A stretch of DNA of 64,000 bases from Eubacteriales bacterium (GTDB lineage: Bacteria; Bacillota; Clostridia; Oscillospirales; CAG-272): positions 18,980-82,979 of the forward strand of contig JAZSIF010000001.1 of NCBI GenBank assembly GCA_045533675.1, written 5' to 3'. Each line of letters begins with the position of its first letter. The first letter of the stretch is position 1. The position numbers were made by a program, and so were the translations under genes. Below are positions 4,637-52,130 of the stretch, in pieces. The notes under the pieces are model-generated. The model made no database searches. It was given only the letters and a program-made list of their open reading frames with translations, and was not told where the DNA came from.

Positions 4637-4647
4637 AGGCATAAAAC

Positions 4648-4866
4648 AAAAGAAATCCGTCGGTAGCGTAGTTAGCTGTCCGACGGATTTCTTCCTTAAA
4701 AAATATTCAGTTACACGGCACACAAGGACGAGGAGTGTTTGTCAATCCTTAGAAATAATTTGTATAAAAGTTTTTGCGGAGCAGCATGAACTGCAAGTTC
4801 ATGCCCCGTAGCGAAGCAGAGGTGGTTTTCTAAAAAGCGACAAAACGCGTCCTCTCGTCCGCGCAA
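4648..4866 (+). repeat. intergenic repeat family copy A (hairpin H, middle M, tail T, plus a 43-nt insertion)
   Basis: AGAAATCCGTCGG..CCGACGGATTTCT hairpin, then TTAAAAAATATTCAGTTACACGGCACACAA, then TTTGTATAAAAGTTTTTGCGGAGC[insert]TTTTCTAAAAAGCGAC. It is homologous to the copies at 15.5, 38.7, 45.5-45.8 and 49.7 kb. Confidence 0.7.
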
Positions 4867-4867
4867 C

Positions 4868-5839
4868 CTATTCAAACCTTTTCCCCTGATATGTGCTTCT
4901 TTCAAAAAGAAGCTTATCAATGTCGTTGATCACCGACACCTTTTTGCGACTCCACTCGGGAGCAAGAAGATCGTCCCCCATACCGTCCCCCGTTACACGG
5001 GCGATGACCGTCTCGGGAGGAAGGAGCTCCAGAGCATCTACCACCAGCTCTACGTATTTCTCCTTTTCGAGAGGGGCGTACTTTCCCTCCTCGTAAAGGG
5101 TAGCTAAAGCGGTATTCCGCAGCACGTGCAACAGATGTATCTTCACCTGATCGGGACGAAGCTCTGCCACTTGACGGACCGATTCCAACATTTCGGCGCG
5201 GTCTTCTCCCGGAAGACCGAAAATCAGGTGGACACAAATCCCGATCTTGTCCGACGTATTCCGCAATCGGCGGTATCCCGCGAGAAAATCGGCAAAGGTA
5301 TGTCCTCGATTGATCAATTCCGCGGTTTTGTCATGTACGGTCTGGAGCCCTAATTCCACGGTGAGCGCCGTCCGCTCGGCAAGGTCGGCAAGATATGCCG
5401 CCACTTCGCCCTCCAGGCAATCCGCGCGGGTGGCGATATTCAGTCCCACTGCCCCCGGAAGGGTCAGCGCTTCCTCAAAAAGCTCTCTCAGACGAGTCAC
5501 GGGCGCATAGGTATTGGTGTGCGCTTGAAAATAAGGAATACACCGCTCCACGCTCCATTTGGAGCCGAGCGCTTCACGGACACGCCGATATTGCTCACCA
5601 ATCGGCAGTGTGGGACTTTCGGCAAAATCGCCGCTTCCCCGCCCCGAGCAATAGATACAACCGCCCACACCGCATCGCCCGTCAATATTGGGACAGGTAA
5701 ATCCTCCGTCCAAGGGGATCTTCGCGCATTTGCCGCCAAAGGTCTTACGCAAATAATAATCGTAGGTATGGTAGCGCTTGTTGGTATCGGTATAGGGAAA
5801 AGGATTGGACGTTCTTTGGTTGATCTTCTTCATTCTCAT
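4868..5839 (-). CDS. TIGR01212-family radical SAM protein
   Basis: 323 aa containing FTCPNIDGRCGVGGCIYCS (Cys cluster) with a YhcC-like overall layout. Confidence 0.8.
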   Translation of the reverse strand: MRMKKINQRTSNPFPYTDTNKRYHTYDYYLRKTFGGKCAKIPLDGGFTCPNIDGRCGVGGCIYCSGRGSGDFAESPTLPIGEQYRRVREALGSKWSVERCIPYFQAHTNTYAPVTRLRELFEEALTLPGAVGLNIATRADCLEGEVAAYLADLAERTALTVELGLQTVHDKTAELINRGHTFADFLAGYRRLRNTSDKIGICVHLIFGLPGEDRAEMLESVRQVAELRPDQVKIHLLHVLRNTALATLYEEGKYAPLEKEKYVELVVDALELLPPETVIARVTGDGMGDDLLAPEWSRKKVSVINDIDKLLFERSTYQGKRFE

Positions 5840-13068: not shown

Positions 13069-15504
13069 ATGTCAAACAAATTCACACAAAAAGCGCAAAA
13101 CACACTCAATTTGGCTCTCACTTTTGCCAGAGAGCTGGGACACAGCTACGTAGGCTCCGAGCATCTTCTCTTGGGACTGGTATCCGAAAAGGACAGCATA
13201 GCCTCTCGTCTGCTTGCCGCTCGGGGAGCGGATGCCGCGCGGATCCGCCAAAGCATTGCCGACGTATCGGGAGTAGGCTCCCAGAGCTTTGTCCGCGCGT
13301 CCGATATGACCCCCAGAGCCAAAAAGATCATTGAGGGTTCGGCAGCCGAATCTCATAAGAGCGGGAGCCGTTACATCGGGACCGAGCATCTTCTCATGGC
13401 GCTTCTTCGGGAAAAGGATTCCGTAGGAGTACGGCTTTTGGAATCCGAGGGAATCCCTTCCGAGGAGCTGATGGACGACGTGGACACTTATCTGAATACA
13501 TCTGTAGAGAAGGCGCCCCGTTCCGCCTCCCCCGAAAAGGAGGAAAAGCTGAAGATCAAGGGAGCTCCCGTACTCAGCTCCTACGGACGAGATCTGACCG
13601 AACGGGCAAAGGAGGGGCGAATTGACCCTATCATCGGGAGAGATTCCGAAACCGAACGGCTCATTCGCATTCTCTCTCGCCGACAAAAAAACAATCCCTG
13701 TCTGATTGGAGAACCCGGTGTGGGCAAGACCGCCGTGGTGGAGGGACTTGCCGAGCGGATCGTCAATGGCAGCGTACCTCCCACCCTTCGGGACAGACGC
13801 ATCGTTACCTTGGATATTTCCTCTATGATCGCGGGAGCAAAATACCGAGGAGAATTTGAGGAACGCCTCAAAAACGTCATGGAGGAGGTTCGCCGCAATC
13901 CCGACATTATCCTGTTCATCGATGAGATTCACGTCATCATTGGCGCGGGTGCCGCTGAGGGAGCGGTGGATGCCGCTAACATCCTAAAGCCCGCTCTTGC
14001 CAGAGGAGAATTGCAGATGATCGGTGCCACGACCTTAGCGGAATACCGTTCTCATATAGAAAAGGACGCGGCTCTGGAGCGCCGTTTTCAATCGGTTCAC
14101 GTACAGGAACCATCCGAGGAAGCCGCAAAAGAAATTCTCAGGGGGCTTCGGGAACGCTATGAGGAACATCACGGACTGCGAATTTCCGATGAAGCCATCG
14201 AGGCGGCGGTTTCCCTCTCGGTCCGCTATCTTCCCGACCGTTTTCTGCCCGACAAAGCCATTGACCTCATTGATGAGGCGGCGGCGGGAGTCCGTATTGC
14301 CGCTGAGGAGCTCCCCTCCGCATTACAACCCTTGGAGGATGAACTGAAGGCGCTCTCCCTCCAAATGGAGGAAGCCATTTTGGCAAGGGATTTTGAAGAA
14401 GCGGCAAGGATACGCGACCGAGAACGGCAAATGAAGGAGGAGCTTATCGAAGAAAAGCAACGTGTATCCTCCAACGCAAAGGGGGCTCTTTCTGTTTCCG
14501 CCTACGACGTTGCCGACGTCATCACCAGATGGACGGGAATTCCCGTCAGCAATCTTTTGGCGGATGAAAGTGAAAAGCTTCTGCGTTTAGAGGATACCCT
14601 CAAAGAGCGTGTGATCGGACAGGACGAAGCCATTGCCTCCCTTTCCCGCGCCATTCGTCGGGGACGGTTGGGACTCAAGCATCCAAAACGTCCCATTGGC
14701 TCCTTTATCTTTCTCGGGCAGAGCGGTGTGGGAAAGACCGAGCTTGCCCGCGCGCTTTCCGAGCAATTGTTTGGCAGCAGAGACTCTCTCATTCGATTGG
14801 ATATGTCGGAGTATATGGAGAAGCACAGCGTGTCCCGTCTCATCGGGTCCCCGCCGGGTTATGTGGGCTACGAGGAAGGCGGACAGCTCACCGAGCGGGT
14901 ACGCCGCCGTCCCTATTCGGTCATTCTGTTTGACGAGATGGAAAAAGCGCACCCTGACGTATTCAATCTCTTGCTTCAGGTCTTAGAGGACGGTGTCCTG
15001 ACCGATTCCAAAGGCAGACGGGTGGATTTCTCCAATACCGTTCTCATCATGACCTCCAATCTCGGATGCTCCCCCGAGGACCGAAGAAAGACGGTAGGCT
15101 TTACCCTTTTTGACTCAGAGCAAGAGAACGAACGGGAAAAGCTGATCTCCACGCTTCGGGAACGCTTCCGAGGAGAATTTCTCAACCGTGTAGACGAGAT
15201 CCTGCTTTTCCGTCCCTTAGACAAAAGAGATCTAACCAAAATTGCCGAAGCCTTATTAGAGCAGATCGGTCAGCGAGCCGGACAATTGGGGATCACCCTG
15301 TCCTTTGATTCCTCAGTCGCCTCCTTCCTTGCGGACACCTCTTCTGCCACCTTGGGCGGTGCCCGACCCCTGCGCGGGCTTGCGGTCCGACAAGTCGAAG
15401 ATCCTCTGTCCACAGCCCTCCTTGAAAAACGTTTTCAGTCGGGAGACTCGGTCTGTGCCTTCGTTCCCGCGGGAAAAGGAGAGATCGTATTTGAAAAATG
15501 TTAG
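13069..15504 (+). CDS. clpC: ATP-dependent Clp protease ATP-binding subunit ClpC
   Basis: 811 aa with Clp_N repeats and two AAA+ modules (GEPGVGKTA and GQSGVGKTE). There is also a UVR-like linker, [13 protein letters not shown]. Confidence 0.93.
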
Positions 15505-15540
15505 TTTAGATTTTATAGAAATTTCAGCTTTCTTGTTTTT

Positions 15541-15640
15541 GGTACACCGTGTAACTTTATAGAATTTATCTATGGACGAAGCCCGTCGGACCGCATTGCC
15601 CTCGCATGCTTCCGACGGATTTCTTTTAAATATTTTTTCT
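15541..15640 (-). repeat. intergenic repeat family copy B (M + H, inverted, no T)
   Basis: GGTACACCGTGTAACTTTATAGAATTTATCTATGGACGAAGCCCGTCGG...CCGACGGATTTCTTTT aligns with copies D-left and E. Confidence 0.6.
15583..15627 (+). terminator. intrinsic terminator after clpC (the repeat-family hairpin)
   Basis: CCGTCGGA ... TCCGACGG stem followed by ATTTCTTTT. Confidence 0.7.
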
Positions 15641-15718
15641 TTCCGTCCATTTGTTTACATTGCGTTCAAAAATTAGGTATATAATGTATATAATGTTGTA
15701 TGAAATAAAGGATTTTCT

Positions 15719-16589: not shown

Positions 16590-17153
16590 ATGAGCGCCAA
16601 TGATCGAATCCAATGGCTTCACAAAAAAATAATTGCGGGCTGTTATCCCAATGCCTCACACCTTTCCGAGCGCTTTGAGATCTCCCACCGCCAGGCACAG
16701 CGTGACGTGGAGTATCTGCGGAAGGACTTAGAGGCTCCCTTGCGGTATTGCTCCAAGAAAAAGGGATACTACTACGACGGAGATTTTATGCTTCCTCTTC
16801 TTCTCGAAGCGGAAAACGATACCGACTATCAGGACGTGGTATCGGGACTTCGGGCATTCAACGATCTGTCTGCCGTTCGCTCCATCGTCCAGCTTCAGCT
16901 TCCCTATTCGGCAACGCTGGAGATCACCGATAAAATGACGGTCATGAATCTGCGTGCCTTTATCGTAGGCGAGGAGCCTCATCACCGCTACCGCTGTGAA
17001 TTTCCCAGCGTGGAGCTCTTCCTCGGTATTGCCGTGTCCGCCGATGCCGACGTTCGCATCATTTCCCCGGACTGGCTTCGGGTCAAGCTGGTGGATTTTG
17101 CCAAGCGAATCTTAGAGAGAAATCAAGTAGAAGAGGATGAAGAGGAGGCTTGA
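16590..17153 (+). CDS. HTH transcriptional regulator, YafY-like but short
   Basis: MSANDRIQWLHKKIIAGCYPNASHLSERFEISHRQAQRDVEYLR is HTH_11-like. The C-terminus ADADVRIISPDWLRVKLVDFAKRILE is WCX-like. The start is set at the ATG after AAGGAG. Confidence 0.6.
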   Translation: MSANDRIQWLHKKIIAGCYPNASHLSERFEISHRQAQRDVEYLRKDLEAPLRYCSKKKGYYYDGDFMLPLLLEAENDTDYQDVVSGLRAFNDLSAVRSIVQLQLPYSATLEITDKMTVMNLRAFIVGEEPHHRYRCEFPSVELFLGIAVSADADVRIISPDWLRVKLVDFAKRILERNQVEEDEEEA

Positions 17154-17206
17154 CACGCCTCCTCCTTCCTTTTCTAAAAATATTTTAAAAACTTTTCAAA
17201 AACCTA

Positions 17207-17234
17207 TTGACAAATCAATTTTTCATGGTATAAT
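17207..17234 (+). promoter_or_regulatory. sigma-A promoter for rplJL
   Basis: TTGACA (17207-12), 16-nt spacer ending TGg, TATAAT (17229-34). Confidence 0.65.
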
Positions 17235-17239
17235 ATTTG

Positions 17240-17405
17240 ATGTTATCCAAAGACAGCAGGTCTCCGTAAAGGCAAATGCCTCCCTGCCGAGGACAAGATC
17301 AATGAAATATTCTTTTCGTTATCTTTCTTCGCGCAAGGACTATGTCTTTCGGAAGAAAGTTTTTTATTTCCTGCTTACACATTTTCACATGGGAGGTGAA
17401 AGAAA
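17240..17405 (+). promoter_or_regulatory. ribosomal protein L10 leader with attenuator terminator
   Basis: A roughly 165-nt 5' UTR before rplJ, ending in the hairpin CTTTCTTC(17323-30)...GAAGAAAG(17352-59) plus TTTTTT. The position and architecture fit the Firmicute L10 leader. Confidence 0.55.
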
Positions 17406-18561: not shown

Positions 18562-19632
18562 TCAAAACAGATTTCCGAGAATCGAGTCAACCAGATCCTC
18601 GTTCTTCTTTGGCTCTTCCTTGGGAGCCTCCTCCGCGGGAGCTTCCTTGGAAACGACTTCCTCAATGGGAGTTGCCTCCTGATCAAAGCCTGCGGCAACG
18701 ATGGTAATTCTCATCTCATCCTCAAGCTCGTTGTCAAATGCCACACCGAAGATCACGCTTGCCTCGGCATTGCACTCGGAGGAGATCATAGAAGCAGCCA
18801 GATCCACATCCTCCAGACCCACGTCGGGAGAAGCGGAAATACTGATGATGATTCCCTTCGCGCCCTTGATCGAGGTCTCGAGCAACGGGCTGGAGATCGC
18901 CATGCCTGCGGCAACCTGTGCCTTATCCTTACCTGTTGCGCTGCCAACGCCCATGTATGCCTTGCCGGAGTTGGCAATGACAGAAGTAACGTCAGCAAAG
19001 TCGATGTTGATAAATCCGGGAACGTTAATGAGATCGGAGATGCTCTGTACCGCACGGCGAAGCACCTCGTCTGCCTCGGTGAACGCATTCATGAGAGTAA
19101 TGCGGGTATCGGTAACCAGCTTCAGTCTCTCGTTGGGAATGACCACCAAGGAGTCTACGTAAGGAGCAAGCTCGGCAATTCCCTCATTGGCGCGGTCCAT
19201 CTTCTTGCGACCCTCAAACTGGAAGGGAGTGGTCACCACACCCACCGTAAGGATCTCCATTTCCTGCGCCAGTCTTGCTACCACGGGGGTAGCGCCCGTA
19301 CCGGTTCCGCCGCCCATACCCGCTGTGATAAAGATCATGTCTGCACCCGAAAGCAGCTTCTTAAGCTCATTGACCGCTTCCTCAGCGGCTCTCTCGCCGA
19401 TCTCGGGGTTGGAGCCCGCGCCGAAGCCATTGGTAATCTTTTCACCGATCACCAGCTGGGTGGTCGCCTTACATCTTCTGAGCGCCTGCTTGTCCGTGTT
19501 GATGGCGATAAAGTCCACGCCCTTTACACCTGCGGCGATCATACGGTTGATGGCATTGTTTCCGCCTCCGCCTACACCGACTACCTTAATCTTTACGCCG
19601 TAATCCATTACGCTATCCTGTTCAAAAGCCAT
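18562..19632 (-). CDS. ftsZ: cell division GTPase FtsZ, distal copy
   Basis: 356 aa with [37 protein letters not shown], a disordered PAEEAPKEEPKK linker and the tail DLVDSILGNLF. RBS AGGAGG is 7 nt upstream. Confidence 0.93.
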   Translation of the reverse strand: MAFEQDSVMDYGVKIKVVGVGGGGNNAINRMIAAGVKGVDFIAINTDKQALRRCKATTQLVIGEKITNGFGAGSNPEIGERAAEEAVNELKKLLSGADMIFITAGMGGGTGTGATPVVARLAQEMEILTVGVVTTPFQFEGRKKMDRANEGIAELAPYVDSLVVIPNERLKLVTDTRITLMNAFTEADEVLRRAVQSISDLINVPGFINIDFADVTSVIANSGKAYMGVGSATGKDKAQVAAGMAISSPLLETSIKGAKGIIISISASPDVGLEDVDLAASMISSECNAEASVIFGVAFDNELEDEMRITIVAAGFDQEATPIEEVVSKEAPAEEAPKEEPKKNEDLVDSILGNLF

Positions 19633-19703
19633 ATCTTTGCCTCCTATCGTCCGACCCTTGGGTCAGCCCATCCTTCTCTATTAAACTATCCTTACGTTCC
19701 TGA

Positions 19704-20792
19704 TCAAACACCGAACATGGAGCCGAGGAAATCATCCAGATCCACATCCGCCTTCTTTGCGGGTGCTTCCTCTACCTTAGGAGCTTCCTCTGCTTTAAGA
19801 GCTTCCTCTGCCGCCTTGGGAGCTTCCTCTGCCATATCCTTGGAGAAGCCCGTAGCGATGAGGGTGATTCTCATTTCATCCTCCAGCTCGGGATCAAAGG
19901 CTACACCGAAGATCACGTTGGCATCGGGATTGCACTCGTTGGTCACCATGGTACAAGCCACGTCTACGTCGGCAAGTCCCACGTCGGGAGACGCGGTAAT
20001 ACTCAAAATGATACCCGTAGCGCCCTTGATGGAGGTGTCGAGGAGAGGGCTGGAGATCGCCATCTTTGCCGCGTTCTCTGCCTTGTCCTTACCCGACGCG
20101 CTACCGATACCCATATGTGCCAGACCAGAGCGGTACATAACCGAGGTCACGTCCGCAAAGTCCAAATTGATCACACCCTCAATGTTGATCAGCTCGGAAA
20201 TGCTCTGTACGGCACGGCGAAGCACGTCGTCAGCCTCGGAGAAGGCGTTGAAGAGCGTGATTCTTGTATCCGATACCAAACGGAGTCTCTCGTTGGGGAT
20301 CACCACTAAGGAGTCTACGTACTGGCGAAGCTCGTCGATACCCTGAAGTGCCTGATCCATTCTGCGCTTGGACTCAAAGGCAAAGGGGGTGGTTACCACG
20401 CCGACGGTGAGAATATCCATTTCGTGGGCGATTCTTGCCACCACGGGAGCAGCGCCCGTACCCGTTCCGCCGCCCATGCCCGCGGTAATAAATACCATAT
20501 CCGCACCTGCCAGCACGGTCTTAATCTGCTCAATGGATTCCTCCGCGGAGCGCTCACCGATGGATGGGTTGGCACCCGCGCCAAAGCCCTTGGTGATCTT
20601 TTCTCCAATGACGATCTGCGTAGGCGCTACCGAATTTTTCAGCGCCTGACGATCGGTATTGATGGTAATAAACTCGACGCCCTGTACGCCCGACCGAATC
20701 ATACGGTTGACTGCGTTATTTCCGCCTCCGCCAACGCCGACCACCTTAATACAAACGCCGCTCTCAAAGCTTTCGTCACGTTCAAAACTCAT
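19704..20792 (-). CDS. ftsZ: cell division GTPase FtsZ, proximal copy
   Basis: 362 aa from MSFERDE (GGAGGAG 6 nt upstream; the track adds MEEIN). It has [37 protein letters not shown], an [14 protein letters not shown] linker and the tail [12 protein letters not shown]. Confidence 0.93.
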
Positions 20793-20845
20793 GTTGATCT
20801 CCTCCAAATCTTCCTTACGATCGAAATCATAAAATATACATATAT

Positions 20846-33340: not shown

Positions 33341-33459
33341 GGTATTTGCCTCCTTTCGTTTTTCTGCCGCTCACACGTTTTTGGGGCTGCGCCCTCTTGC
33401 GCGCGTACGCGTATAATAATCGGTAGCGATTTTCCGCTACCCGTTTTCTTTGTTTCCTC

Positions 33460-33515
33460 GGTGGTTTCGGGGTGGTTTTCGCTACACTTTGCTACACTTT
33501 CCACCATTTCGCCCC
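33460..33515 (-). promoter_or_regulatory. candidate MraZ operator: 10-bp phased direct repeats in the mraZ leader
   Basis: The minus strand reads GTGGGgcgaaatGGTGGAAAGTGTAGCAAAGTGTAGCGAAAACCACCCCGAAACCACC. On the plus strand GCTACACTTT is exactly tandem at 33481-33500. The repeats lie just downstream of the -10. Confidence 0.45.
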
Positions 33516-33529
33516 ACTCGGATGGTATT

Positions 33530-33558
33530 ATTATAACTGATAACGGTTTTTTTGGCAA
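33530..33558 (-). promoter_or_regulatory. Pmra-like promoter for the dcw operon
   Basis: Minus strand TTGCCA, 17-nt spacer, TATAAT, about 190 nt upstream of the mraZ ATG. Confidence 0.55.
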
Positions 33559-33779
33559 GAGGAAATTGAAAATTTTCCAAATATTTTTTTAAAAAAAGTG
33601 ATTTTTTTCGTGCTTTTTTTCAAAAAGTGTCGAAAAGTGCCGTACATGTTCGCTTTCATCACTGAATTTACATTTTTTTACAATTTTATGGTTTTTGATG
33701 GATAAGCAGGATATTTGTCCTCTTTGCGTTCAGTTTTTCTTGCTTCGACAGGAAGTAACTCATGTCCTACAAATTATAC

Positions 33780-33810
33780 AAATAAAAGAAGAGCGACCTT
33801 GCGGTCGCTC
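33780..33810 (-). terminator. intrinsic terminator belonging to the rubrerythrin stump
   Basis: Minus strand GAGCGACC gcaa GGTCGCTC followed by TTCTTTTATTT. Confidence 0.6.
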
Positions 33811-33850
33811 TTCGGTGCGTTAAAGCCTTATGTTACTTGACTTTTCAGTA

Positions 33851-33925
33851 TTACTTGAAGTATCTGTTAAGTACGCCCTCGAGACTCAGCCGTGACGAAC
33901 CTCGTCGCGGTAGCTTCTCGTGTGC
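33851..33925 (-). pseudogene. 3'-terminal remnant of a rubrerythrin-family gene (frameshifted, no 5' part)
   Basis: The nucleotide sequence aligns to the 3' end of the intact rbr at 34815. Shared blocks are TTA...GAAGTATCT, GCCGTG, CCTCGTCGCG and CTCGTG. Translation gives ..HEKL / RDEVRHG / SLEGVLNRYFK* in three different frames, against [23 protein letters not shown]. Confidence 0.6.
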
Positions 33926-34339
33926 TTCAAAGCAAAAAGCTTTGCGATGCTTGGAATTGGATAACTTTTCCGCTTCCGATCATGGCTACAAAAAACTTCA
34001 TTTCATGTCATAAAATTTGATTTTCTTTAGGCGCAGCTTCTTTTTTCATTGCGTCTCGATAAACGAAGAAATAAATGATACTTCCAACAAAGGTACTCAG
34101 CGGAAGACCGATGAAAAGAAAGAACACTGTTTTTTGCAAAGGCCATACAAACCATGACCAACAGCTTCTGATTGGTATATTCGCAACATTTACGCAAACA
34201 CTTCCCTTTTAGCATTCGCAAAAGAAGCTTTTTGAGCTATAATATGTGTATCAGAAAGCTTCCAATTTTCAGGCTTCCAAAATTGAGGCTTTTTTCGAGA
34301 GCCCAATGACAAACATTCCACAAAACTTCCACAAAATAT

Positions 34340-34385
34340 GAGAAAAAGAGGGTAAGCCGAAGCTTACCCTCTTGGTGTTTTATTG
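34340..34385 (-). terminator. intrinsic (bidirectional) terminator after rubredoxin
   Basis: 12-bp stem AAGAGGGTAAGC cgaa GCTTACCCTCTT with T-runs on both strands. Confidence 0.75.
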
Positions 34386-34387
34386 GA

Positions 34388-34543
34388 TTACTCCTCTACC
34401 TCGAATGCGTCCTTGTCAAGACCGCAGACGGGGCAGGTGAAGTCGGCGGGGATATCCTCCCAAGCCGTGCCTGGTGCGATTCCGTTATCAGGATCGCCCT
34501 TGGCGGGATCGTATTCATAGCCGCAGGGGCATACGTATTTCAT
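34388..34543 (-). CDS. rubredoxin (atypical first knuckle CPCG)
   Basis: Below the track length cutoff, so translated manually: [51 protein letters not shown] (51 aa). Confidence 0.85.
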
Positions 34544-37279: not shown

Positions 37280-38431
37280 TCACATCACAAATTGCATCGT
37301 GCAAAACGCGGCATAGACACAAAGAAGCAGAATGCCCTGAACGCGGGAAAGCTTGCCGCGAATGAGAGCGGGGACGGTCAAAAGAAGCATGACGCCCAGC
37401 ATCACGGGAATATCCAGCACCAAGGATGCGGCAATGCCGCCGACGGTGGCTTCCGCGGGAACAAGGAAGGGAGAAATCGTGGTTGCGACACCGCTGACCA
37501 ATACCAGGTTGAAAAGGTTCGCTCCGATGATATTTCCGAGAGACAGCGCTCCGTGTCCCTTGGCAAGAGCCGTAATCGCCGTCACGAGCTCGGGCAGAGA
37601 CGTGCCAAGTGCCACAAAGGTCAGTCCGATCACCGTATCGGGAACTCCCATCGTTTCCGCAATATAGGTACCGCTATCCACCAGAAGATTGGCGCCGCCC
37701 GCAATGACCGCCGCGCCGACGATCAGGAACAGGACCTCACGTAGCATGGTAATTCCCTTGCCTGCCTGATTGCGAATCAGTGCCACTACGGCATACACAA
37801 GGAAGAGTACCATCATAACCACGCCGATATAGCGCATCATTCCGCCCTTGTAGATCATAAAGCCGCCGCCCACAAAGGCAACCAGCGCCTCGATCACAAG
37901 GCCTTTAATAGAAAGGAAAAATTCCTCCGTCTCCTCCTGCGTCTCACACTCGGAAAGTGCCTCCATCTCTGTACCGCTTCCCTTCTTCATGGAAAGCATG
38001 GTGCAGACCATGTAAACGAAGAAGCCGCAAAGCAGAACGATGCCCACCCAACGGGTGAATTCGCCCATCAGATATGCCACCAGAACGTAGAATACCGCCG
38101 CGCCGAAGAAGAAGGACACGGGCAGGATCAGCGCCTTACGGTCCGCTTTGCCCGGCTTGATGGCAATGGTCAGTGCCGCGATCAGTGAGGTGTTACAGAT
38201 AATCGAGCCTACGGCATTGCCGTATGCCATACCGCCCGAGCCTGCCATGGCACCCTGCGCGGACACCATCACCTCGGGCAGCGTCGTTCCGATAGACACC
38301 ACCGTGGCGCCGATCAGAAGCTCAGGCAGACGAAAACGACGGGCAATTCCCGACGCGCTGTCCACAAACCAGTCGCCTCCCTTGATCAACATCAATAGTC
38401 CGATCACAAACAAGAGGATTTGAAGTAACAT
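37280..38431 (-). CDS. CaCA-family cation/Na+ antiporter (YrbG-like)
   Basis: Two alpha-repeats, GTTLPEVMVS and GTSLPELVTA. The start is at MLLQILLFVIG (AAAGGAG upstream). The track adds 21 unsupported codons. Confidence 0.88.
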   Translation of the reverse strand: MLLQILLFVIGLLMLIKGGDWFVDSASGIARRFRLPELLIGATVVSIGTTLPEVMVSAQGAMAGSGGMAYGNAVGSIICNTSLIAALTIAIKPGKADRKALILPVSFFFGAAVFYVLVAYLMGEFTRWVGIVLLCGFFVYMVCTMLSMKKGSGTEMEALSECETQEETEEFFLSIKGLVIEALVAFVGGGFMIYKGGMMRYIGVVMMVLFLVYAVVALIRNQAGKGITMLREVLFLIVGAAVIAGGANLLVDSGTYIAETMGVPDTVIGLTFVALGTSLPELVTAITALAKGHGALSLGNIIGANLFNLVLVSGVATTISPFLVPAEATVGGIAASLVLDIPVMLGVMLLLTVPALIRGKLSRVQGILLLCVYAAFCTMQFVM

Positions 38432-38481
38432 TGTTTTTCTCCTTTTTACGTTTTGTATACCTTTTATCTTTATTTTTGCAT

Positions 38482-38616
38482 AAAAAAAGCTCAATATATG
38501 GCTCTTGCGGCTTCCATATATTGAGTCTGGTTCTTTAAAGCAAGCCAGGTCTTATGACCATGCTGTTGACTTGCTACGCGCGAAACATCCGCACGCCACT
38601 ACTCCCTCAAACTTAC
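38482..38616 (-). promoter_or_regulatory. candidate yybP-ykoY (Mn2+) type riboswitch with terminator
   Basis: The leader RNA reads ..GAGGGAGUAGUGGCGUGCGGAUGUUUCGCGCGUAGCAAGUCAACAGCAUGGUCAUAAGACCUGGCUUGCU... It ends in the 12-bp terminator CUCAAUAUAUGG..CCAUAUAUUGAG plus U7. GGGAGUAG, GUCAACA and AAGACC resemble conserved yybP-ykoY blocks. Confidence 0.45.
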
Positions 38617-38622
38617 CTATTT

Positions 38623-38651
38623 ATTATATAAAGAAATTTCGCTCTTGTCAA
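38623..38651 (-). promoter_or_regulatory. sigma-A promoter of the riboswitch-CaCA-oadBG unit
   Basis: Minus strand TTGACA, 17-nt spacer, TATAAT. Confidence 0.65.
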
Positions 38652-38685
38652 GAGTTTTTTTAAAAAGATTGAATTTTCTTTCCTT

Positions 38686-38835
38686 AAAAAAGAAATCCGT
38701 CGGTGGTGCCAAAGGCGCCGACGGATTTCAGCCTTAGAAAAAATATCTTATACGGTACACAATGACCACAGCCCTGCTGAGAAAGCCAAAAACGTTTTGT
38801 TGTAAGTTTTTGCGGAGCTTTTTTCAAAAAGCGCG
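38686..38835 (+). repeat. intergenic repeat family copy C (H-M-T)
   Basis: AGAAATCCGTCGG..CCGACGGATTTC, then TTAGAAAAAATATCTTATACGGTACACAATG, then TTGTTGTAAGTTTTTGCGGAGCTTTTTTCAAAAAGCG. It lies immediately 3' of asd. Confidence 0.7.
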
Positions 38836-38858
38836 AGAAATCCTTTTCTCAGCTATCC

Positions 38859-39935
38859 TTAATTGAAGTAACCCTCTCTGTACAAAAGCTCGGCGATCAG
38901 TACAGCGCCGCCAGCGGCACCGCGGAGCGTGTTGTGAGACAGACCCACGAACTTGTAATCGTAGATCTTATCCTCACGAAGTCTGCCCACGGTTACGCCC
39001 ATGCCGCCGTAGATATCACGGTCGAGAGCAGCCTGGGGACGGTTGTCTTCCTCAAAATAGGTAATGAACTGCTCGGGGGCATTGGGAAGTCCAAGCTCCT
39101 GGGGCTTACCCTTGAATTCAGCCCATGCCTTGAGGATTTCCTCCTTCGTGGGCTTATTCTCGAATTTCACGAACACAGCGGCGGTATGACCGTCGGTCAC
39201 GGGCACGCGAATGCACTGAGTGGTGATGACGGGCGCGTCAGCCTTGACAATCTCGCCGTTCTCAACCTTACCCCAAACGCGCAGGGGCTCCTGCTCGCTC
39301 TTCTCTTCCTCGCCGCCGATGAAGGGGATCACGTTATCGATCATTTCGGGCCACTCGCGGAACGTCTTGCCCGCGCCCGAAATTGCCTGATAGGTGGTAG
39401 CCACCACTTCCTTGATGCCATACTTGCGCAGAGGCGTCAGGGCGGGTACATAGGACTGAATGGAGCAGTTGGGCTTGACGGCAATGAATCCGCGCTTGGT
39501 TCCGAGACGCTTTCTCTGTGCCTCGATGACTGCCAGATGCTCGTCGTTGATCTCGGGAATCACCATGGGAACATCAGGCGTCCAACGGTTTGCGGAGTTA
39601 TTGGAGACCACGGGAATCTCTGCCTTGGCATATGCCTCCTCCAGCGCCTTAATCTCATCCTTTTTCATATCCACGGCACAGAACACAAACTGACAGAGCT
39701 TGCCCATCTCGTCGATCCTTGCCGCATCCAGCACGGGCATCTTCTTATATTTCTCGGGCATGGGAGTCTTCATCTTCCAACGAGCGCCCACTGCCTCCTC
39801 ATAGGTCTTTCCCGCGGAGCGAGCCGAAGCCGCCAGCGCCGCTACCTCAAAATAGGGGTGATTCTCCAGCAGGGTCAGGAATCTCTGTCCTACCATACCC
39901 GTGGCGCCAACCACGCCAACCTTCATCTTTTCCAT
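38859..39935 (-). CDS. asd: aspartate-semialdehyde dehydrogenase
   Basis: MKVGVVGATGMVGQRF..., with the active-site region KPNCSIQS. Confidence 0.92.
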   Translation of the reverse strand: MEKMKVGVVGATGMVGQRFLTLLENHPYFEVAALAASARSAGKTYEEAVGARWKMKTPMPEKYKKMPVLDAARIDEMGKLCQFVFCAVDMKKDEIKALEEAYAKAEIPVVSNNSANRWTPDVPMVIPEINDEHLAVIEAQRKRLGTKRGFIAVKPNCSIQSYVPALTPLRKYGIKEVVATTYQAISGAGKTFREWPEMIDNVIPFIGGEEEKSEQEPLRVWGKVENGEIVKADAPVITTQCIRVPVTDGHTAAVFVKFENKPTKEEILKAWAEFKGKPQELGLPNAPEQFITYFEEDNRPQAALDRDIYGGMGVTVGRLREDKIYDYKFVGLSHNTLRGAAGGAVLIAELLYREGYFN

Positions 39936-44895: not shown

Positions 44896-45456
44896 ATGTC
44901 AAAATACGATTACTTTGGTGCCTTAGAATCCCTTTCCGAGCTGTCGGCAAGGGCAGTGGAGGCGGCTTGCTCCTACCCCCGTCGAAAAGCGACCGATCCG
45001 CCCTCCGCCCTGCGGCGTGCCTGTGACCGAACGGTGTGTGAGCTGGAGGATACCCTCTTTTCGGATTTCCTCCCTCCTATGGAGCGGGAGACCCTCGCCG
45101 CCTGCGCCCATTGCCTTTCTCACGTGGTAAACGAGGCGACCGAGCTGCTCGCCGCCACGCCCCAAGACTCCCGCAAAAATGAGGAGGGCCTTGTTTGTAT
45201 TCGTTTGGCGGCACTGCTTCGGGACACCGTAAGAATGCTCCAAAAAATTTCAAAGCCCAACGTGCTCCCCCGTACCCAAGCCTTTCGGGAACTGCTCACC
45301 GAGGCTCGGGAAGCCCACGAGCATATGCTCGCCTGTCTGCGCGCGGGCGCTCTTCCCCGCTCCATGGCAACCGCCATCATTCAAACGGGACGTCTCCGCA
45401 ATACCCTCTCCGAAGCCTTTGACTGTGTGGTCGAGGTGATGTTGGAAAATATTTGA
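44896..45456 (+). CDS. DUF47/PhoU-like helical protein paired with PiT
   Basis: 186 aa, all-helical, adjacent to PiT. The assignment rests on context and weak pattern only. Confidence 0.55.
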   Translation: MSKYDYFGALESLSELSARAVEAACSYPRRKATDPPSALRRACDRTVCELEDTLFSDFLPPMERETLAACAHCLSHVVNEATELLAATPQDSRKNEEGLVCIRLAALLRDTVRMLQKISKPNVLPRTQAFRELLTEAREAHEHMLACLRAGALPRSMATAIIQTGRLRNTLSEAFDCVVEVMLENI

Positions 45457-45483
45457 TAATAGTTAGTTAAGAGGGGGTTTTTG

Positions 45484-45627
45484 GGTCGCTTTTGAAAAAG
45501 CTCCGCAAAACTTTCATACAATGTTTTTCTTATATCACCTTTCTTGATTTGGTGTACCATGAAATTTTAACTTCTTTCTCTAAGGTAGAAACCAGACGGA
45601 CGGCTGCTGCGCCACCGCCTGGTTTCT
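45484..45627 (-). repeat. intergenic repeat family copy D-left (T-M-H, inverted)
   Basis: GGGTCGCTTTTGAAAAAGCTCCGCAAAACTTTCATACAA...GGTGTACCATGAAATTTTAACTTCTTTCTCTAAGGTAGAAACCAGACGG..CCGCCTGGTTTCT. Confidence 0.75.
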
Positions 45628-45642
45628 TAATTTTTAATAAAA

Positions 45643-45792
45643 AGAAATCCGTCGGGACGCAGCAGGGTCCGACGGATTTCTACATTAGAGAAAAAATATT
45701 CAGTTATACAGCACACAATGCGTAGAACGTGATGTAAAATAACCTATAATTTGTATGAAAGTTTTTGCGGAGCTTTTTTCAAAAAGCGACCC
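45643..45792 (+). repeat. intergenic repeat family copy D-right (H-M-T)
   Basis: AGAAATCCGTCGG..CCGACGGATTTCT ACATTAGAGAAAAAATATTCAGTTATACAGCACACAATG...TTGTATGAAAGTTTTTGCGGAGCTTTTTTCAAAAAGCGACCC. Its tail is the reverse complement of the D-left head, apart from three homopolymer-length differences. Confidence 0.75.
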
Positions 45793-45823
45793 GCATCCCC
45801 GCATCCCCGCATCCCCGCGTCCC
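45790..45823 (-). repeat. octamer tandem array (CCGCATCC-type), G-tracts on the minus strand
   Basis: Plus strand CCC GCAT CCCC GCAT CCCC GCAT CCCC GCGT CCC. That is five C-runs with 4-nt spacers, between the AraC stop codon and repeat copy D-right. Confidence 0.8.
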
Positions 45824-45837
45824 TCGCGTCATCTCAA

Positions 45838-46806
45838 CTAACTCCCCCGCCGATAGCGGTTTGGGGTCACACCATAGCGTTTTTTAAATTCCTTGTGGAA
45901 ATAGCTGGAATTTTCGTAGCCCACGCGGTTCATGATCTCGCCCACGGGCATGGCGGTGGAGCCAAGGAGGGAGCGGGCGGTCTCGAAGCGTTCCCGCAGA
46001 AGGAGCTGTTTAAAGCTCTCTCCGAATTTTTTCTCGATCCAACGGCTCAGATAGGAGGGAGAAAGTCCCATCATAGCCGCCGCCTCGGTCAGCGTTGCGG
46101 TGCTATAAGAGGTCTTGATATAATTCAGGAGTCTCCTCTGCATCCGATCGGAATAGTGTTCGGCGGGAGGATGCTCCTCCCCTCCGAGGGAAACAAGGTA
46201 ACAAAGGAGCAGAGAAAGAGACTGGCGCAAAAGATATCCGTCGGTGTTGCCCTCACAGATCACCGTCCCCACAAGGGTCTCCATGAGATTGCGGACGGCA
46301 ATGCTCTCCTTGGCGGACAGCCGAAGATAGGAAAGCCCCTCACGGTCCAGGAGCGAGGCAAAGGTTGCCGTGGGAAGAGGCGATCCCTCCCCCATACCGC
46401 GAAGCAGCTGCTCAAAGAGATCGGAAGAAATGATCAGATTCACACCGATGTCGTCCGCACCCGTTTCCAAAACCGAATGCTCGGTATGTCTGCCAAAGAG
46501 GATCAGCTCGTCGGTATCCAAGGGAATCCTCTCGCCCCCCACGTCGTGGGTAATGCATCCGTGACAGACGTACATGATCTCGATAAAATCATGAGAGTGA
46601 GTGGGAAAGGAGCGAAAGCGAGGGTGCATCCGCAGACAGACGGGCGCAGTCTCCTCTCCCGAAACCAGATGGGACACCTTGCGGCGCTCCACGATAAACC
46701 GACCCGATTTCCCGTAAAGATTACGGGGGGTGGGGTTCTGTTCCACCAAAATATATTGTTCCTCCTCGGTCAGGTGCGAAAGCTGTTCCAGAATCCTTGC
46801 GTCCAT
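45838..46806 (-). CDS. AraC-family regulator (cupin sensor plus HTH), probable rhamnose regulator
   Basis: FPTHSHDFIEIMYVCHG (cupin) and a C-terminal AraC HTH (GYENSSYFHKEFKKRYGVTP). It is divergent from rhaBA. The start is at MDARIL (GGGAGGAG upstream). Confidence 0.85.
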   Translation of the reverse strand: MDARILEQLSHLTEEEQYILVEQNPTPRNLYGKSGRFIVERRKVSHLVSGEETAPVCLRMHPRFRSFPTHSHDFIEIMYVCHGCITHDVGGERIPLDTDELILFGRHTEHSVLETGADDIGVNLIISSDLFEQLLRGMGEGSPLPTATFASLLDREGLSYLRLSAKESIAVRNLMETLVGTVICEGNTDGYLLRQSLSLLLCYLVSLGGEEHPPAEHYSDRMQRRLLNYIKTSYSTATLTEAAAMMGLSPSYLSRWIEKKFGESFKQLLLRERFETARSLLGSTAMPVGEIMNRVGYENSSYFHKEFKKRYGVTPNRYRRGS

Positions 46807-49648: not shown

Positions 49649-49649
49649 G

Positions 49650-49792
49650 GAGACGCGGGAACGCGGGAACGCGATTTTACGCTTTTTAGAAAAAAGCTTG
49701 GCAAAAACTTTTATACAAATTATGGTTTATGTTACATCACGTCCTACGCGTGGTGTACCGTGTAGCTGAATGTTTTTCTCTGAGGAAACCGA
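49650..49792 (-). repeat. intergenic repeat family copy E (octamers-T-M, inverted, hairpin lost)
   Basis: GACGCGGGAACGCGGGAACGCG, then CGCTTTTTAGAAAAAAGCTTGGCAAAAACTTTTATACAA, then ..GGTGTACCGTGTAGCTGAATGTTTTTCTCTGAGGAAACCGACC. It abuts the ATG of the next gene. Confidence 0.65.
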
Positions 49793-49794
49793 CC

Positions 49795-50577
49795 ATGTTT
49801 GATTTTCATTTACATACCACCGTCTCCTTTGACGGTATCAGCACCGCGAGGGATATGGCGCATACAGCCGCCGACCGAGGACTTTGCGAGATCTGCTTCA
49901 CCGACCATGCCGATTTTCTCTATGAGCGGGGCGGCACGCAGCTCTACGATCTCTCCGAATATTCCCGTGCCTATGACCATTTGGAGGTTCCCTCTTTGAC
50001 CATTCGTCGAGGGACCGAGCTGGGGCTTGCCGCGTGGAGCGTGGATGCCTCCGAGAAATTTCTCGCGGAGCGCCCCTACGATTTCGTCATTGGCTCGGTC
50101 CACTACACCGAGTTCGGCGACCCTTATTATCCCGCGTTTTGGGAGGGACGTTCGAGCAAAGCCGCCTTCCTTTGTTATTTAGAGGAGGTTTTGCGATGCG
50201 TCAAGCTCCATGAGAATTTTGACGTGCTCGGTCACCTGACCTACGTGTGCAAATCCGCTCACAATCCTACGCACGAGCCTGTGCGTTACGAGGATTTTCG
50301 TGAGATCACCGACGAGATCCTTCGCGTTCTCGTGAGAAAGGGTAAGGGCTTGGAGGTCAACACCAGCGGAGTGGACAAAGCGGGGGCGCTTCTTCCCTCG
50401 GAGAAATTCTTGCGCCGCTTCCGTGAGCTTGGCGGCGAGATCGTCACCGTAGGCTCGGATGCCCACGACGTAACCCGTGTGGGGCAGTATGTGGACGATG
50501 CCATGGAGCTTCTGCGGGACGTCTTCGGTTACGTCTGCACCTTTGCGGAAAGAAAGCCCATCTTCCATAAGCTGTAA
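49795..50577 (+). CDS. PHP-domain histidinol-phosphatase-family protein
   Basis: MFDFHLHTTVSFDG...CFTDHADF...GSVHY...LGHL...GSDAH, a PHP metal-ligand pattern. The track ORF start at 49729 lies inside the repeat and is rejected. Confidence 0.8.
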   Translation: MFDFHLHTTVSFDGISTARDMAHTAADRGLCEICFTDHADFLYERGGTQLYDLSEYSRAYDHLEVPSLTIRRGTELGLAAWSVDASEKFLAERPYDFVIGSVHYTEFGDPYYPAFWEGRSSKAAFLCYLEEVLRCVKLHENFDVLGHLTYVCKSAHNPTHEPVRYEDFREITDEILRVLVRKGKGLEVNTSGVDKAGALLPSEKFLRRFRELGGEIVTVGSDAHDVTRVGQYVDDAMELLRDVFGYVCTFAERKPIFHKL

Positions 50578-51099: not shown

Positions 51100-51561
51100 A
51101 TGTTTTCCATGCAGTTAGACAAGAAGGAATACGAAAAGTACGTAGCGGCACACGCTAAAAAATCCCCCCTTTTCAGGGATTCTCTGCGGGCATTCCTCGT
51201 GGGTGGCGGGATCTGCGCCACGGCGGAGGGGCTTTGCCGCCTTTATCAGATGACGGGAATTTCCAAGGAGGACGCGGGAACGTGGACCTCTGTCTCCCTC
51301 GTTTTTGTGGCGGTTCTTCTCACCGCCATCGGAATTTTTGACAAGATTGCCCGCTTTGCGGGGGCAGGTACCCTCGTACCAATTACGGGCTTTGCCAATG
51401 CGGTCGCCTCCCCCGCCATCGACAGCCGAGCCGAGGGAATCGTGCTTGGGATCGGCGCCAAAATCTTTACCGTGGCGGGTCCCGTCCTTCTTTACGGCAC
51501 GCTGGCGGGAACTCTCTACGGTGTGGTGTATTATTTTTGGGGGTTATTAGGGGTTAGTTAA
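51100..51561 (+). CDS. spoVAC: stage V sporulation protein AC
   Basis: AFLVGGGICATAEGL...GAGTLVPITGFANAV...AGPVLLYG. The start may instead be the ATG at 51109. Confidence 0.85.
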   Translation: MFSMQLDKKEYEKYVAAHAKKSPLFRDSLRAFLVGGGICATAEGLCRLYQMTGISKEDAGTWTSVSLVFVAVLLTAIGIFDKIARFAGAGTLVPITGFANAVASPAIDSRAEGIVLGIGAKIFTVAGPVLLYGTLAGTLYGVVYYFWGLLGVS

Positions 51562-51620
51562 GAAAACAAAAGAGACGCGTTTCGCGCTTTTTCAAAAGCG
51601 CGAAAAAAATCTCTTCCAAA

Positions 51621-52130
51621 CTAACCAACCTCCCTCTTCACCGCCTTCAGAAAGGAATTCCTGTCATGTGTCACACCCATGACCACGTATCGACCGGAGC
51701 GATAGATTGCGATCTCTTCGCCGAGGGGGGCGTGTTCGGTATGCCGAAGCGCCACCCTGAGAGTGTCCATACGGGACAGACACAAGGCATACACCCTTCT
51801 CGCGTGGTCCTTCGAGGGAGCGCGGAACACGGCGATCTCCAGGGGGACGGCAAAGGAAGACAGATACATGGAAAATTCACAGAGTCGGATGTCCTCCTCA
51901 CCCTCCTCGCCATACATCGCGCGCAAAAGCGCCGAAGGCGGATATCCCTTACTCCCCTCCTCAACCCCCGAACGGTAGATCTCCCCTTTTGGAAGAGCAT
52001 CCTCTTCTCCCATCAGCTCCGACAGGACCGTGTCGGGGCTTTCTTTATTTCGCGCGCACCCCACAAGCATGACCACCGCCGAAAGAAGCAAAAGACAGAA
52101 TCGGCAAAAATATCCCCGTTCCCTTTTCAT
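51621..52130 (-). CDS. putative lipoprotein
   Basis: Signal peptide with lipobox LLLLSAVVMLVGC. 169 aa. Confidence 0.6.
   Translation of the reverse strand: MKRERGYFCRFCLLLLSAVVMLVGCARNKESPDTVLSELMGEEDALPKGEIYRSGVEEGSKGYPPSALLRAMYGEEGEEDIRLCEFSMYLSSFAVPLEIAVFRAPSKDHARRVYALCLSRMDTLRVALRHTEHAPLGEEIAIYRSGRYVVMGVTHDRNSFLKAVKREVG

Follow-up and report, generated by a model that had tools for sequence, protein, structure and literature searches.

A modular, non-coding repeat with a unit length of 150-230 nt occurs in exactly six copies in a 64-kb stretch of Eubacteriales bacterium DNA (contig JAZSIF010000001.1, positions 18,980 to 82,979; this whole stretch is called the window hereafter). The copies lie behind genes and consist of up to three modules, called T, M and H, preceded by a 5' flank. 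With a probability of about 0.6, they belong to a lineage-specific family of modular small interspersed repeats, copied or mobile, that occupy the interval between a stop codon and a terminator. Each monomer would be transcribed as the 3' untranslated region (3'UTR) of the gene upstream, its hairpin H and the U-run behind it acting as the intrinsic terminator of that gene. The family would have spread by targeting gene 3' ends in a process resembling transposition or recombination, in which T and H might be the parts recognised by the spreading machinery. In the course of evolution, a given gene end would acquire, lose or exchange monomers, or keep them in truncated form. Since T and H stay near one consensus while the middle drifts, copying or mobility is favoured over fixed regulatory sites.

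The six copies were recovered with a profile built from our own alignment (nhmmer, E values from 1e-30 to 1e-52), and a 23-nt T pattern gave three matches in the window against 0.00 expected from shuffles. Apart from the six copies, all that the window profile yields are hairpin echoes on the reverse strand and short fragments resembling T (51584-51624 and 33612-33644). Even a broader profile, built from 32-36 copies, provides no credible seventh copy in the window; a weak match at 17090-17186 lies within a coding region and is attributed to chance. The original prediction had reported at least six recurrences, all of which were found at essentially the same positions. It had rightly described copy B as M plus H and copy F as T plus M only, except that B also retains a decayed T. 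The copies are as follows.

4631-4868, minus strand (feature 4640..4867): copy A, behind the radical-SAM gene (stop codon 4868-4870); flank, T with an insertion, M, and H at 4652-4691
15468-15643, plus strand (feature 15484..15640): copy B, behind clpC; decayed T, M, and H at 15578-15623
38671-38862, minus strand (feature 38680..38858): copy C, behind asd (stop codon 38859-38861); flank, T, M, and H at 38692-38729
45456-45641, plus strand: copy D, behind a 186-aa gene (44896-45456)
45628-45822, minus strand, with the 5' flank reaching 45837: copy E, behind araC
49651-49810, plus strand (feature 49649..49788): copy F, behind the rhaA stop codon; flank, T and M, without H

Some of these copies show particular features. 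The insertion within the T of copy A is about 48 nt long and bears its own hairpin, GCATGAACTTGCAGTTCATGC. The decayed T of copy B overlaps the final codons of clpC. The flank of copy F contains two GGGAACGC units, its T is a GCTTGGC variant, and its M is fused, at the junction TCTCT/GAGGAAA, to the ribosome-binding site of a PHP-domain gene (ATG at 49795). Among the genes flanking the copies, Pfam confirmed the names originally given to the radical-SAM, clpC, asd, araC and rhaA genes. This is not the case for the 186-aa gene, which had been called DUF47 and has no Pfam match at E<=0.001; in the orthologous locus of a relative, this gene adjoins a PHO4/PiT gene.

The family was followed outside the window in two ways. 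A scan with a single T pattern of one genome per species gave 26 loci (L001-L026), and a profile search (nhmmer) of those loci gave more than 40 further copies, many of them as head-to-head pairs. Orthologous loci were obtained as contigs carrying AraC homologs, with identities of 91% (L027), 87% (L028), 81% (L029), 75% (L030), 74% (L031) and 62% (L032). The relatives are covered as genome fragments, and the counts of orientation given below rest on these loci.

Anatomy, placement and predicted termination

The anatomy of the monomer was derived from 43 aligned copies. From 5' to 3' it runs from the stop codon of a co-oriented gene through the 5' flank, T and M to H. The outline of T, M and H in the original prediction holds, but a family-specific flank extends further 5', up to the stop codon. 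This flank starts 0-10 nt past the stop codon (mostly 0-2 nt) and is of two recurrent types. In type i, tandem G-rich units of about 8-11 nt are present in 2-6 copies and always include GGA (GAGGACGC, GGGGATGC, GGGAACGC, GGAYGCGTTTA), and type ii is constituted by a TTAGTTACGAC...TTTTT motif. The T module begins with a short hairpin, hairpin 1 (GCTTTTTGAAAAAAGC), followed by the strongly conserved TCCGCAAAAACTTTYATACAAAWTAT (motif TCCGCAAAAACTTTYATACAAA). A 28-mer of T is mostly 79-100% identical to one consensus in at least eight genomes, two copies from JAZOQX reaching 64% and 71%. Some copies, that of copy A among them, carry between the two parts of T an insert of about 45 nt with its own compensated hairpin. 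The M module is variable and defines subfamilies; it contains two conserved islands, CCTCGTC and TTGTGT, and its 3' end is TTYTTTCTCTAAGGTAGAAA (TCTCTAAGGTAGAAA). H is a 12-13-bp hairpin followed by a T-run. Modular variants include solo H, T alone, partial T in tandem, T interrupted by an insertion, and T joined to another conserved sequence of about 270 nt.

RNAalifold applied to 32 copies finds two helices only, hairpin 1 in T and H. In M it detects no shared structure; small hairpins specific to subfamilies can be seen there by eye. Whole copies folded singly have nothing in common beyond the two helices. Hairpin 1 is mostly invariant among near-consensus copies, and in diverged genomes it is exchanged for unrelated perfect hairpins or for a compensated stem (GCTTTCTT/AAGAAAGC). 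Pairing of the 5' flank with the TCCGCAAAAAC arm of T into a longer hairpin was also considered and rejected: two thirds of the copies can form at least 4 bp, but this pairing is no better than that of shuffled flanks (mean z -0.1). Small open reading frames (ORFs) exist on either strand, for instance a 29-aa reverse ORF across T at copy E. However, no ORF is conserved on either strand, since about half of the copies have no ATG and the frame changes with homopolymer length. In the window, neither GAGGACG nor GGACGCG is over-represented as an uptake sequence would be.

H has the properties of an intrinsic terminator: a stable GC-containing hairpin, an immediate U-rich tract and compensatory substitutions. 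The five H hairpins of the window have energies between -21.6 and -26.4 kcal/mol (z from -4.0 to -7.6), the extreme being that of copy A (-26.4 kcal/mol, z -7.6), and are followed by U-rich tails of the UUUCUUUU type. In 32 copies (columns 196-204 / 247-255), seven of the nine pairs of the stem show double changes and 99.6% of the cells are paired, whereas controls slid along the alignment pair at 44-66%; none of 500 shuffles reaches the observed values of covariation. Stem variants comprise CCGTCGG, CCATCGG, TTCTCGG, GTGATCGG and CCGCGG. The single stem sequence originally given for H, GAAATCCGTCGG, is present in copies A, B, C and E, but the hairpin of copy D is a different one (GAAACCAGACGG...CCGCCTGGTTTC). 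All 34 variant cells are Watson-Crick double changes and G-U pairs are absent (0), which is unusual for a constraint acting purely on RNA and would fit a hairpin that functions at the level of DNA or on both DNA strands. No other terminator-like structure was found between the stop codon and H. Because H is the sole such structure downstream of these genes, T and M are by position the 3'UTR. The earlier proposal that H doubles as an intrinsic terminator agrees with this anatomy and with the compensatory changes, and we infer that H is the predicted terminator of the upstream gene.

Gene neighbours were predicted by a simple caller based on codon usage. Where a co-oriented upstream gene was predicted (about 38 copies), 33-85 nt separate the stop codon from the T core, and this gap is always occupied by the family-specific flank motifs. 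Two further copies have a distance of 4 nt, as the predicted upstream ORF crosses the flank and ends in the TGA of T itself (rnhA in L023 and one ORF in L012). All T-bearing copies with a determinable upstream neighbour lie behind a co-oriented gene, with the exception of the second arm of pairs located between same-direction genes (L004, L020, L025, L023) and of two T-only fragments (L014, L021). Most copies are located between convergent genes, where co-orientation is automatic, so that the window alone is weak evidence of orientation. However, the single T-M-H or M-H copies located between same-direction genes are co-oriented in 6 of 6 cases (binomial p = 0.016). The placement originally described, immediately after a stop codon and in the order T, M, H, is therefore borne out by the window and by the larger sample. 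The genes that carry the element (radical SAM, clpC, asd, araC, rhaA, valS and rnhA) share no function.

T might be thought to be a promoter, T-M-H being then a free-standing small RNA (sRNA) gene, composed of promoter, RNA of about 110 nt and terminator, that lies behind other genes. We consider this quite unlikely. In the version of T with short homopolymers the sequence reads TTGAAA-17 nt-TATACA, and four subfamily-2 copies contain an internal TTGAC[CT]-18-CATAAT. In Candidatus Flemingiibacterium, T precedes a different, covarying sequence of about 270 nt, and one of these T copies (L021) is located between divergent genes, so that no co-oriented gene precedes it. However, a consensus scan of 45300-46000 detected no promoter of the sigma-70 type, and one is present in only 4 of 36 copies, on which grounds T as a sigma-70 promoter was rejected. 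The putative -10 box lacks the invariant final T and begins with C (CATACA) in half of the copies, and the spacer is of 19 nt in the long-homopolymer version, to which copy E belongs, while other promoters of these genomes are canonical (TTGACA-17-TATAAT in L010, for instance). There is no terminator between the upstream gene and T, so read-through would cover the element, and the abutment on stop codons would be left unexplained. Resemblances of T to a sigma-E-like promoter (CATACA-T), a CodY box or a sigma-54 site were also considered; none of them fits the conserved positions, and L030 retains hairpin 1 with sequences that are unrelated.

The ~270-nt sequence that follows T in Ca. Flemingiibacterium is a GC-rich conserved sequence (L021:5890-6160, L003:2530-2800 and L002:7745-8000) with visible compensatory changes, such as TTGGGG...CCCCAA versus CCGGGG...CCCCGG, and it has no Rfam match. 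It may be an undescribed structured RNA.

The convergent locus at 45457-45837

Between the 186-aa gene and araC, which are convergent, copies D and E face each other hairpin to hairpin. The locus is composed of the following features.

45454..45456, plus strand: TGA stop codon of the 186-aa gene, upstream of copy D (ORF list and sequence)
45457..45485, plus strand: 5' flank of copy D, TAATAGTTAGTTAAGAGGGGGTTTTTGGG, with stops in all three frames, a TTAGTTA motif and G5T5G3
45486..45523, plus strand: T module of copy D, with hairpin 1 GCTTTTGAAAAAGC at 45488-45501 and motif TCCGCAAAACTTTCATACAATG (alignments, RNAalifold)
45524..45587, plus strand: M module of copy D, variable, 3' end TTCTTTCTCTAAGGTA
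45588..45627, plus strand: H hairpin of copy D, GAAACCAGACGG...CCGCCTGGTTTC, -21.6 kcal/mol, z -4.0, followed by UUAAUUUUU; predicted terminator of the 186-aa gene
45628..45643, no strand: A/T spacer TTAATTTTTAATAAAA, 16 nt, source of the U-rich tails of both hairpins
45644..45680, minus strand: H hairpin of copy E, GAAATCCGTCGG...CCGACGGATTTC, -23.7 kcal/mol, z -6.1, followed by UUUUUAUU; exact stem matches and covariation; predicted araC terminator
45681..45748, minus strand: M module of copy E, closest to the M of copy F (50/62)
45749..45790, minus strand: T module of copy E, with hairpin 1 at 45772-45787
45791..45837, minus strand: 5' flank of copy E, with three tandem GGGGATGC units at 45792-45816, extending to the araC stop codon
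45838..45840, minus strand: araC stop codon, TAG

The flank of copy D belongs to a TTAGTTA / T-run type that recurs in many copies of the family. In L027 the ortholog of the 186-aa gene has the same GAAAATATTTGA end, and the sequences diverge from the first base past the stop codon.

The T modules of D and E are identical at 37 of 38 aligned bases (97%) and differ solely in three homopolymer lengths, as had been noticed before for the terminal repeats of about 40 bp. The M modules are identical at 47 of 64 positions (73%) and belong to different subfamilies: the M of D resembles that of the araC copy in L031, and the M of E resembles those of copy F and of two other L031 copies. The hairpins of D and E differ in sequence and are 16 nt apart. 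The double copy of about 310 bp originally proposed for this locus is thus correct as regards two copies facing each other, but these do not form one unit, since each has its own hairpin and its own M subfamily.

The original prediction had also called the locus MITE-like (MITE, miniature inverted-repeat transposable element), with terminal inverted repeats of about 40 bp. According to that idea, 45484-45823 would be a single palindromic MITE of about 340 bp, with T and T' as its ~40-bp terminal inverted repeats, transposed as a whole. Besides the near-identical T arms (37/38), head-to-head pairs are common in related metagenome-assembled genomes (MAGs), two of them (L012 and L025) share one hairpin, pairs are also found between same-direction genes (L004, L020, L025), and a short palindromic T-Ma-Ma'-T' derivative is present in L023. 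However, the arms belong to two monomers with their own hairpins and with M modules of different subfamilies (73%), the monomer is the commonest unit and occurs alone, the araC site of L030 and L031 has the araC-side monomer only, and no direct repeats flank the D/E pair. The G-rich flanks are not direct target duplications, because they are inverted along with the arms. The single MITE is accordingly a very unlikely description of this locus. D and E are read as a juxtaposition because monomers are the usual unit and the M subfamilies differ, and also because relatives carry the araC-side monomer only and the closest relative carries none. The locus is therefore two independent monomers, one behind each of the convergent genes, facing hairpin to hairpin. 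Nevertheless, a dimeric form may also propagate.

Distribution in related genomes and origin of the family

The loci with T come from uncultured Clostridia: the sheep-colon MAG 'Clostridia bacterium RGIG5324', the 'Eubacteriales bacterium' MAGs JAZOQX01 and JAZSMX01, two Candidatus Flemingiibacterium MAGs and a human-gut MAG. In all, related MAGs (RGIG5324, JAZOQX, Ca. Flemingiibacterium) hold over 50 copies in addition to those of the window. A T-pattern match within a gene of a Lentisphaerae MAG was attributed to chance. Viral contigs, plasmids and phages gave no match, four viral matches to a 17-mer being unrelated hairpins. The search of Rfam suggested with the original prediction was carried out and matched no family to the element, whether at gathering thresholds or at relaxed ones; for 45400-45900, a scan by E value gave generic miRNA-type hairpin matches far below threshold. 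No description of repeats in this lineage was found in the full-text literature.

Identity to the window at four-fold-degenerate sites is 0.43-0.69 across the genomes with orthologous loci, which therefore represent species or genera different from that of the window. The best ClpC homologs (49-65% identical) are too distant for orthology at the site of copy B. The state of three other gene ends in these genomes is listed below.

araC site, L032 (outgroup): no element, plain terminator; no family member in 21 kb
araC site, L031 and L030: diverged T-M-H, only the araC-side monomer
araC site, L029 and L028: near-consensus T, with flank type i (L029) or type ii (L028); contigs break within the element
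araC site, window: copy E
araC site, L027 (closest relative): 85 bp between the genes, with a single plain hairpin; neither side has a copy (D/E site)
rhaA site, L032 and L031: plain terminators
rhaA site, L030, L029 and L010/L028: T-M-H, with differing subfamilies and flank types
rhaA site, L027: solo consensus H, 18 nt past the stop codon
rhaA site, window: T-M fused to the next gene
valS site, L032: plain terminator
valS site, L031: full element
valS site, L015: 3' part of M plus H only

A further site is located in the window at 51562-51620, between two convergent genes (51100-51561 and 51621-52130). There, the window has only a short, bidirectional-looking hairpin, CGCGCTTTTTCAAAAGCGCG, that resembles the outer half of T, and the RGIG5324 ortholog (L006:1261-1652) carries a full double copy. 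Presence/absence polymorphism is thus found at the araC, rhaA, valS and 51562 sites (window, L006, L010, L015 and L027-L032), and as far as sequences from different genomes can tell, the element comes and goes at fixed gene ends, where it is also truncated and exchanged. The old orthologous copies at the araC site of L030 and L031 have diverged and yet keep hairpin 1 by means of different stem sequences. Young consensus copies side by side with old, decayed ones would be the pattern of a propagating element.

The rhaA site also shows a difference in gene content. In L010 (1047-2250) and L027, a eutH-family gene and its promoter separate rhaA from the PHP-domain gene, and both are missing from the window; L010 has a full T-M-H at its rhaA site in addition to this extra eutH gene. 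The junction in the window (49782-49797), where the TCTCTAAGG of the element meets the GAGGAAA of the PHP gene, suggests that eutH could have been lost by a microhomology deletion.

Several contigs end within the element, 70-240 nt past a stop codon (the contig ends of L028, L029 and L030 and the locus ends of L005, L008, L016 and L023). A multicopy repeat would be expected to break metagenome contigs in this way.

A second, unrelated MITE-like repeat, with terminal inverted repeats of about 32 bp (TATAACGGGGCGTCGAGGACGTCGCCCCCTAC ... GTAGGGGGCGACGTCCTCGACGCCCCGTTATA), was observed in the related genomes and is absent from the window. Nested copies are present at L020:5385-5650, L011:2150-2350 and L031:11160-11450, and short forms at L006:1425-1460 and L019:3640-3665. 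It lies directly behind or between H hairpins, often at TTTATAA.

Different observations weigh against a copied or mobile family. The start of the flank 0-2 nt after the stop codon in most copies goes beyond what tolerated random insertion would produce, and hints at function or targeting. No transposase was noticed beside any copy, the flanking genes in related loci not having been screened with Pfam. There are no direct repeats at the ends of monomers or dimers, with the comparison sites (L027, L032 and 51562-51620) too diverged for base-level boundaries, and intergenic DNA cannot be aligned between relatives because synonymous sites are near saturation. The monomer has no terminal inverted repeats either, the ends at flank/T and at H being unrelated, for which reason a classical MITE mechanism is inapplicable. 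What appears as replacement at orthologous sites would be inseparable from divergence plus indels. The conservation of T is inflated in loci L001-L026, which were retrieved by the T pattern, and the copies found through AraC are free of this bias. Finally, termination at H is predicted.

Some of these observations could also be accounted for by a 3'UTR RNA module with a function for the host, a possibility that we regard as real but well short of probable. T, with its hairpin and its A-rich single-stranded motif, the GGA-rich flank and the Shine-Dalgarno-like TCTCTAAGGTAGAAA would bind a protein or the ribosome and tune the decay, the termination or the translation termination of the upstream gene; such a module is compatible with a mobile origin. 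Between genomes, the conservation of T and of the 3' end of M far exceeds that of synonymous sites, hairpin 1 is kept through different stems in L030 and L031 (GGAACCTTTTGCAAAAGGTTCC, CTTGGGGACCTTCTTTCAAGAAGGTCCCCAAG, GCTTTCTTGAAAGAAAGC), flank repeats start 0-2 nt past the stop codon with GGA always included, and copies at the araC site persist across genomes with 74-100% AraC identity. In addition, E. coli REP (repetitive extragenic palindromic) hairpins located about 15 nt or less from a stop codon are reported to lower the expression of the upstream gene. However, the carrier genes have no function in common, the closest relative is without T-M at two sites, and orthologous sites carry different subfamilies instead of one conserved sequence. 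RNAalifold finds no conserved structure in M, the flank does not pair with T better than shuffled flanks do, and a selfish element would show conserved ends and a variable middle as well.

Both ideas can be combined in a cassette that is aimed at gene ends and used there, with an RNA-binding protein or the ribosome at termination reading its stop-abutting GGA repeats and T hairpin; we think this unlikely. A dedicated placement mechanism would explain why different subfamilies are found at exactly the same gene ends across genomes, the reading of flank and T would make termination or decay depend on translation of the ORF upstream, and T would serve as a portable unit, standing at the head of other structured RNAs in Ca. 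Flemingiibacterium as well. The propagating family of 3'UTR repeats set out at the beginning is the explanation that we favour.

Other features of the window were observed as well. An AT-rich, ORF-poor stretch of about 1 kb (33380-34400) contains several hairpin terminators and T-like fragments (for instance GTGCTTTTTTTCAAAAAGTG, 33611-33630) and may be a remnant of foreign or degraded DNA. Two neighbouring paralogous genes on the minus strand (18562-20807; 356 and 367 aa) share about 74% identity along stretches of 300 nt (repeat families D1 and D2). A ribosomal protein L10 leader (17229-17374; RF00557, 50.7 bits) is the sole Rfam family in the window. On the minus strand, a leader of about 190 nt (38495-38690) lies between a TTGACA/TATAAT-like promoter and a Na+/Ca2+-exchanger-family gene (37280-38494), with a terminator-like hairpin, CTCAATATATGG...CCATATATTGAG, and a T-run directly ahead of the start codon. 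It has no Rfam match even at E<=1 and, from its layout, looks like a riboswitch or attenuator.

Significance and relation to known interspersed repeats

If the favoured explanation is true, about one in nine genes (6 of ~53 in the window) is closed by a 3'UTR-plus-terminator that is copied and interchangeable, and the 3' ends of genes in this uncultured gut Clostridia clade are shaped by a repeat family and do not evolve locally. On the practical side, such repeats break metagenome assemblies at gene ends, can be used as lineage markers and may provide a natural set of portable terminators for non-model Clostridia. The strict abutment on stop codons and the shared T module are less sharp in known families, such as SPRITE and REP, and could reveal a mechanism that targets gene ends or a 3'UTR function linked to translation.

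Terminal inverted repeats and target-site duplications characterise classical MITEs, which are inserted in either orientation. The element described here shares with them a small size, the lack of coding capacity, multiple copies and presence/absence polymorphism; however, its monomer has no inverted ends and is strictly co-oriented with the upstream gene. Correia/CREE (Neisseria), ERIC (Yersinia), bcr1 (Bacillus cereus group) and BOX (pneumococcus) elements are transcribed together with adjacent genes, as the present family would be, and affect the transcripts that contain them (PMC10969869). The family resembles these elements in being non-coding, multicopy and intergenic, 100-400 bp long and present in modular or nested forms, and the nesting of a second MITE beside it is a further likeness.

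REP elements can act as terminators or attenuators and as mRNA stabilisers in 3'UTRs (bioRxiv 10.64898/2026.03.23.713779). Like the REP/BIME elements (BIME, bacterial interspersed mosaic element) of Enterobacteria and Pseudomonas, the family is located in 3'UTRs and between convergent genes, has mosaic modules and alternating orientation, and varies in its locations between genomes, as REP/BIME elements do between strains. However, REP is a GC-rich palindrome of 20-40 nt with a conserved GTAG, usually without a U-run, while the element here is directional and four to five times longer. REP termination is partly Rho-dependent, and RAYT transposases are associated with REP; in the genome fragments covered here, no RAYT gene was seen. 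With a directional unit of 150-230 nt and no GTAG motif, the family falls outside the definition of REP/BIME; it is placed apart from both MITE and REP because neither the inverted repeats of the former nor the definition of the latter applies to it.

SPRITE of S. pneumoniae, which among described kinds comes nearest to the family, is a terminator-like interspersed repeat found near the 3' ends of coding sequences (CDS) and most enriched between convergent genes; co-option as a terminator has been proposed for it, no matching insertion sequence is known, and it is confined to a narrow clade (PMC3049150). The family and SPRITE are both non-coding Firmicute repeats of less than 200 bp with a core formed by a stem-loop and a U-rich tract, and the copies of the family likewise lie near CDS 3' ends, mostly between convergent genes. 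Compared by description, SPRITE is AT-rich (28% GC) with an 18-bp duplex and a long U-tract, while H is a GC-containing hairpin of normal size (12-13 bp). Unlike SPRITE, the family has three additional upstream modules (the G-rich tandem flank, the T hairpin with its motif, and M) and abuts the stop codon at 0-10 nt. It is therefore an apparently undescribed family within a recognised class, that of terminator-like repeats at CDS 3' ends (SPRITE, PMC3049150; REP, bioRxiv 10.64898/2026.03.23.713779).

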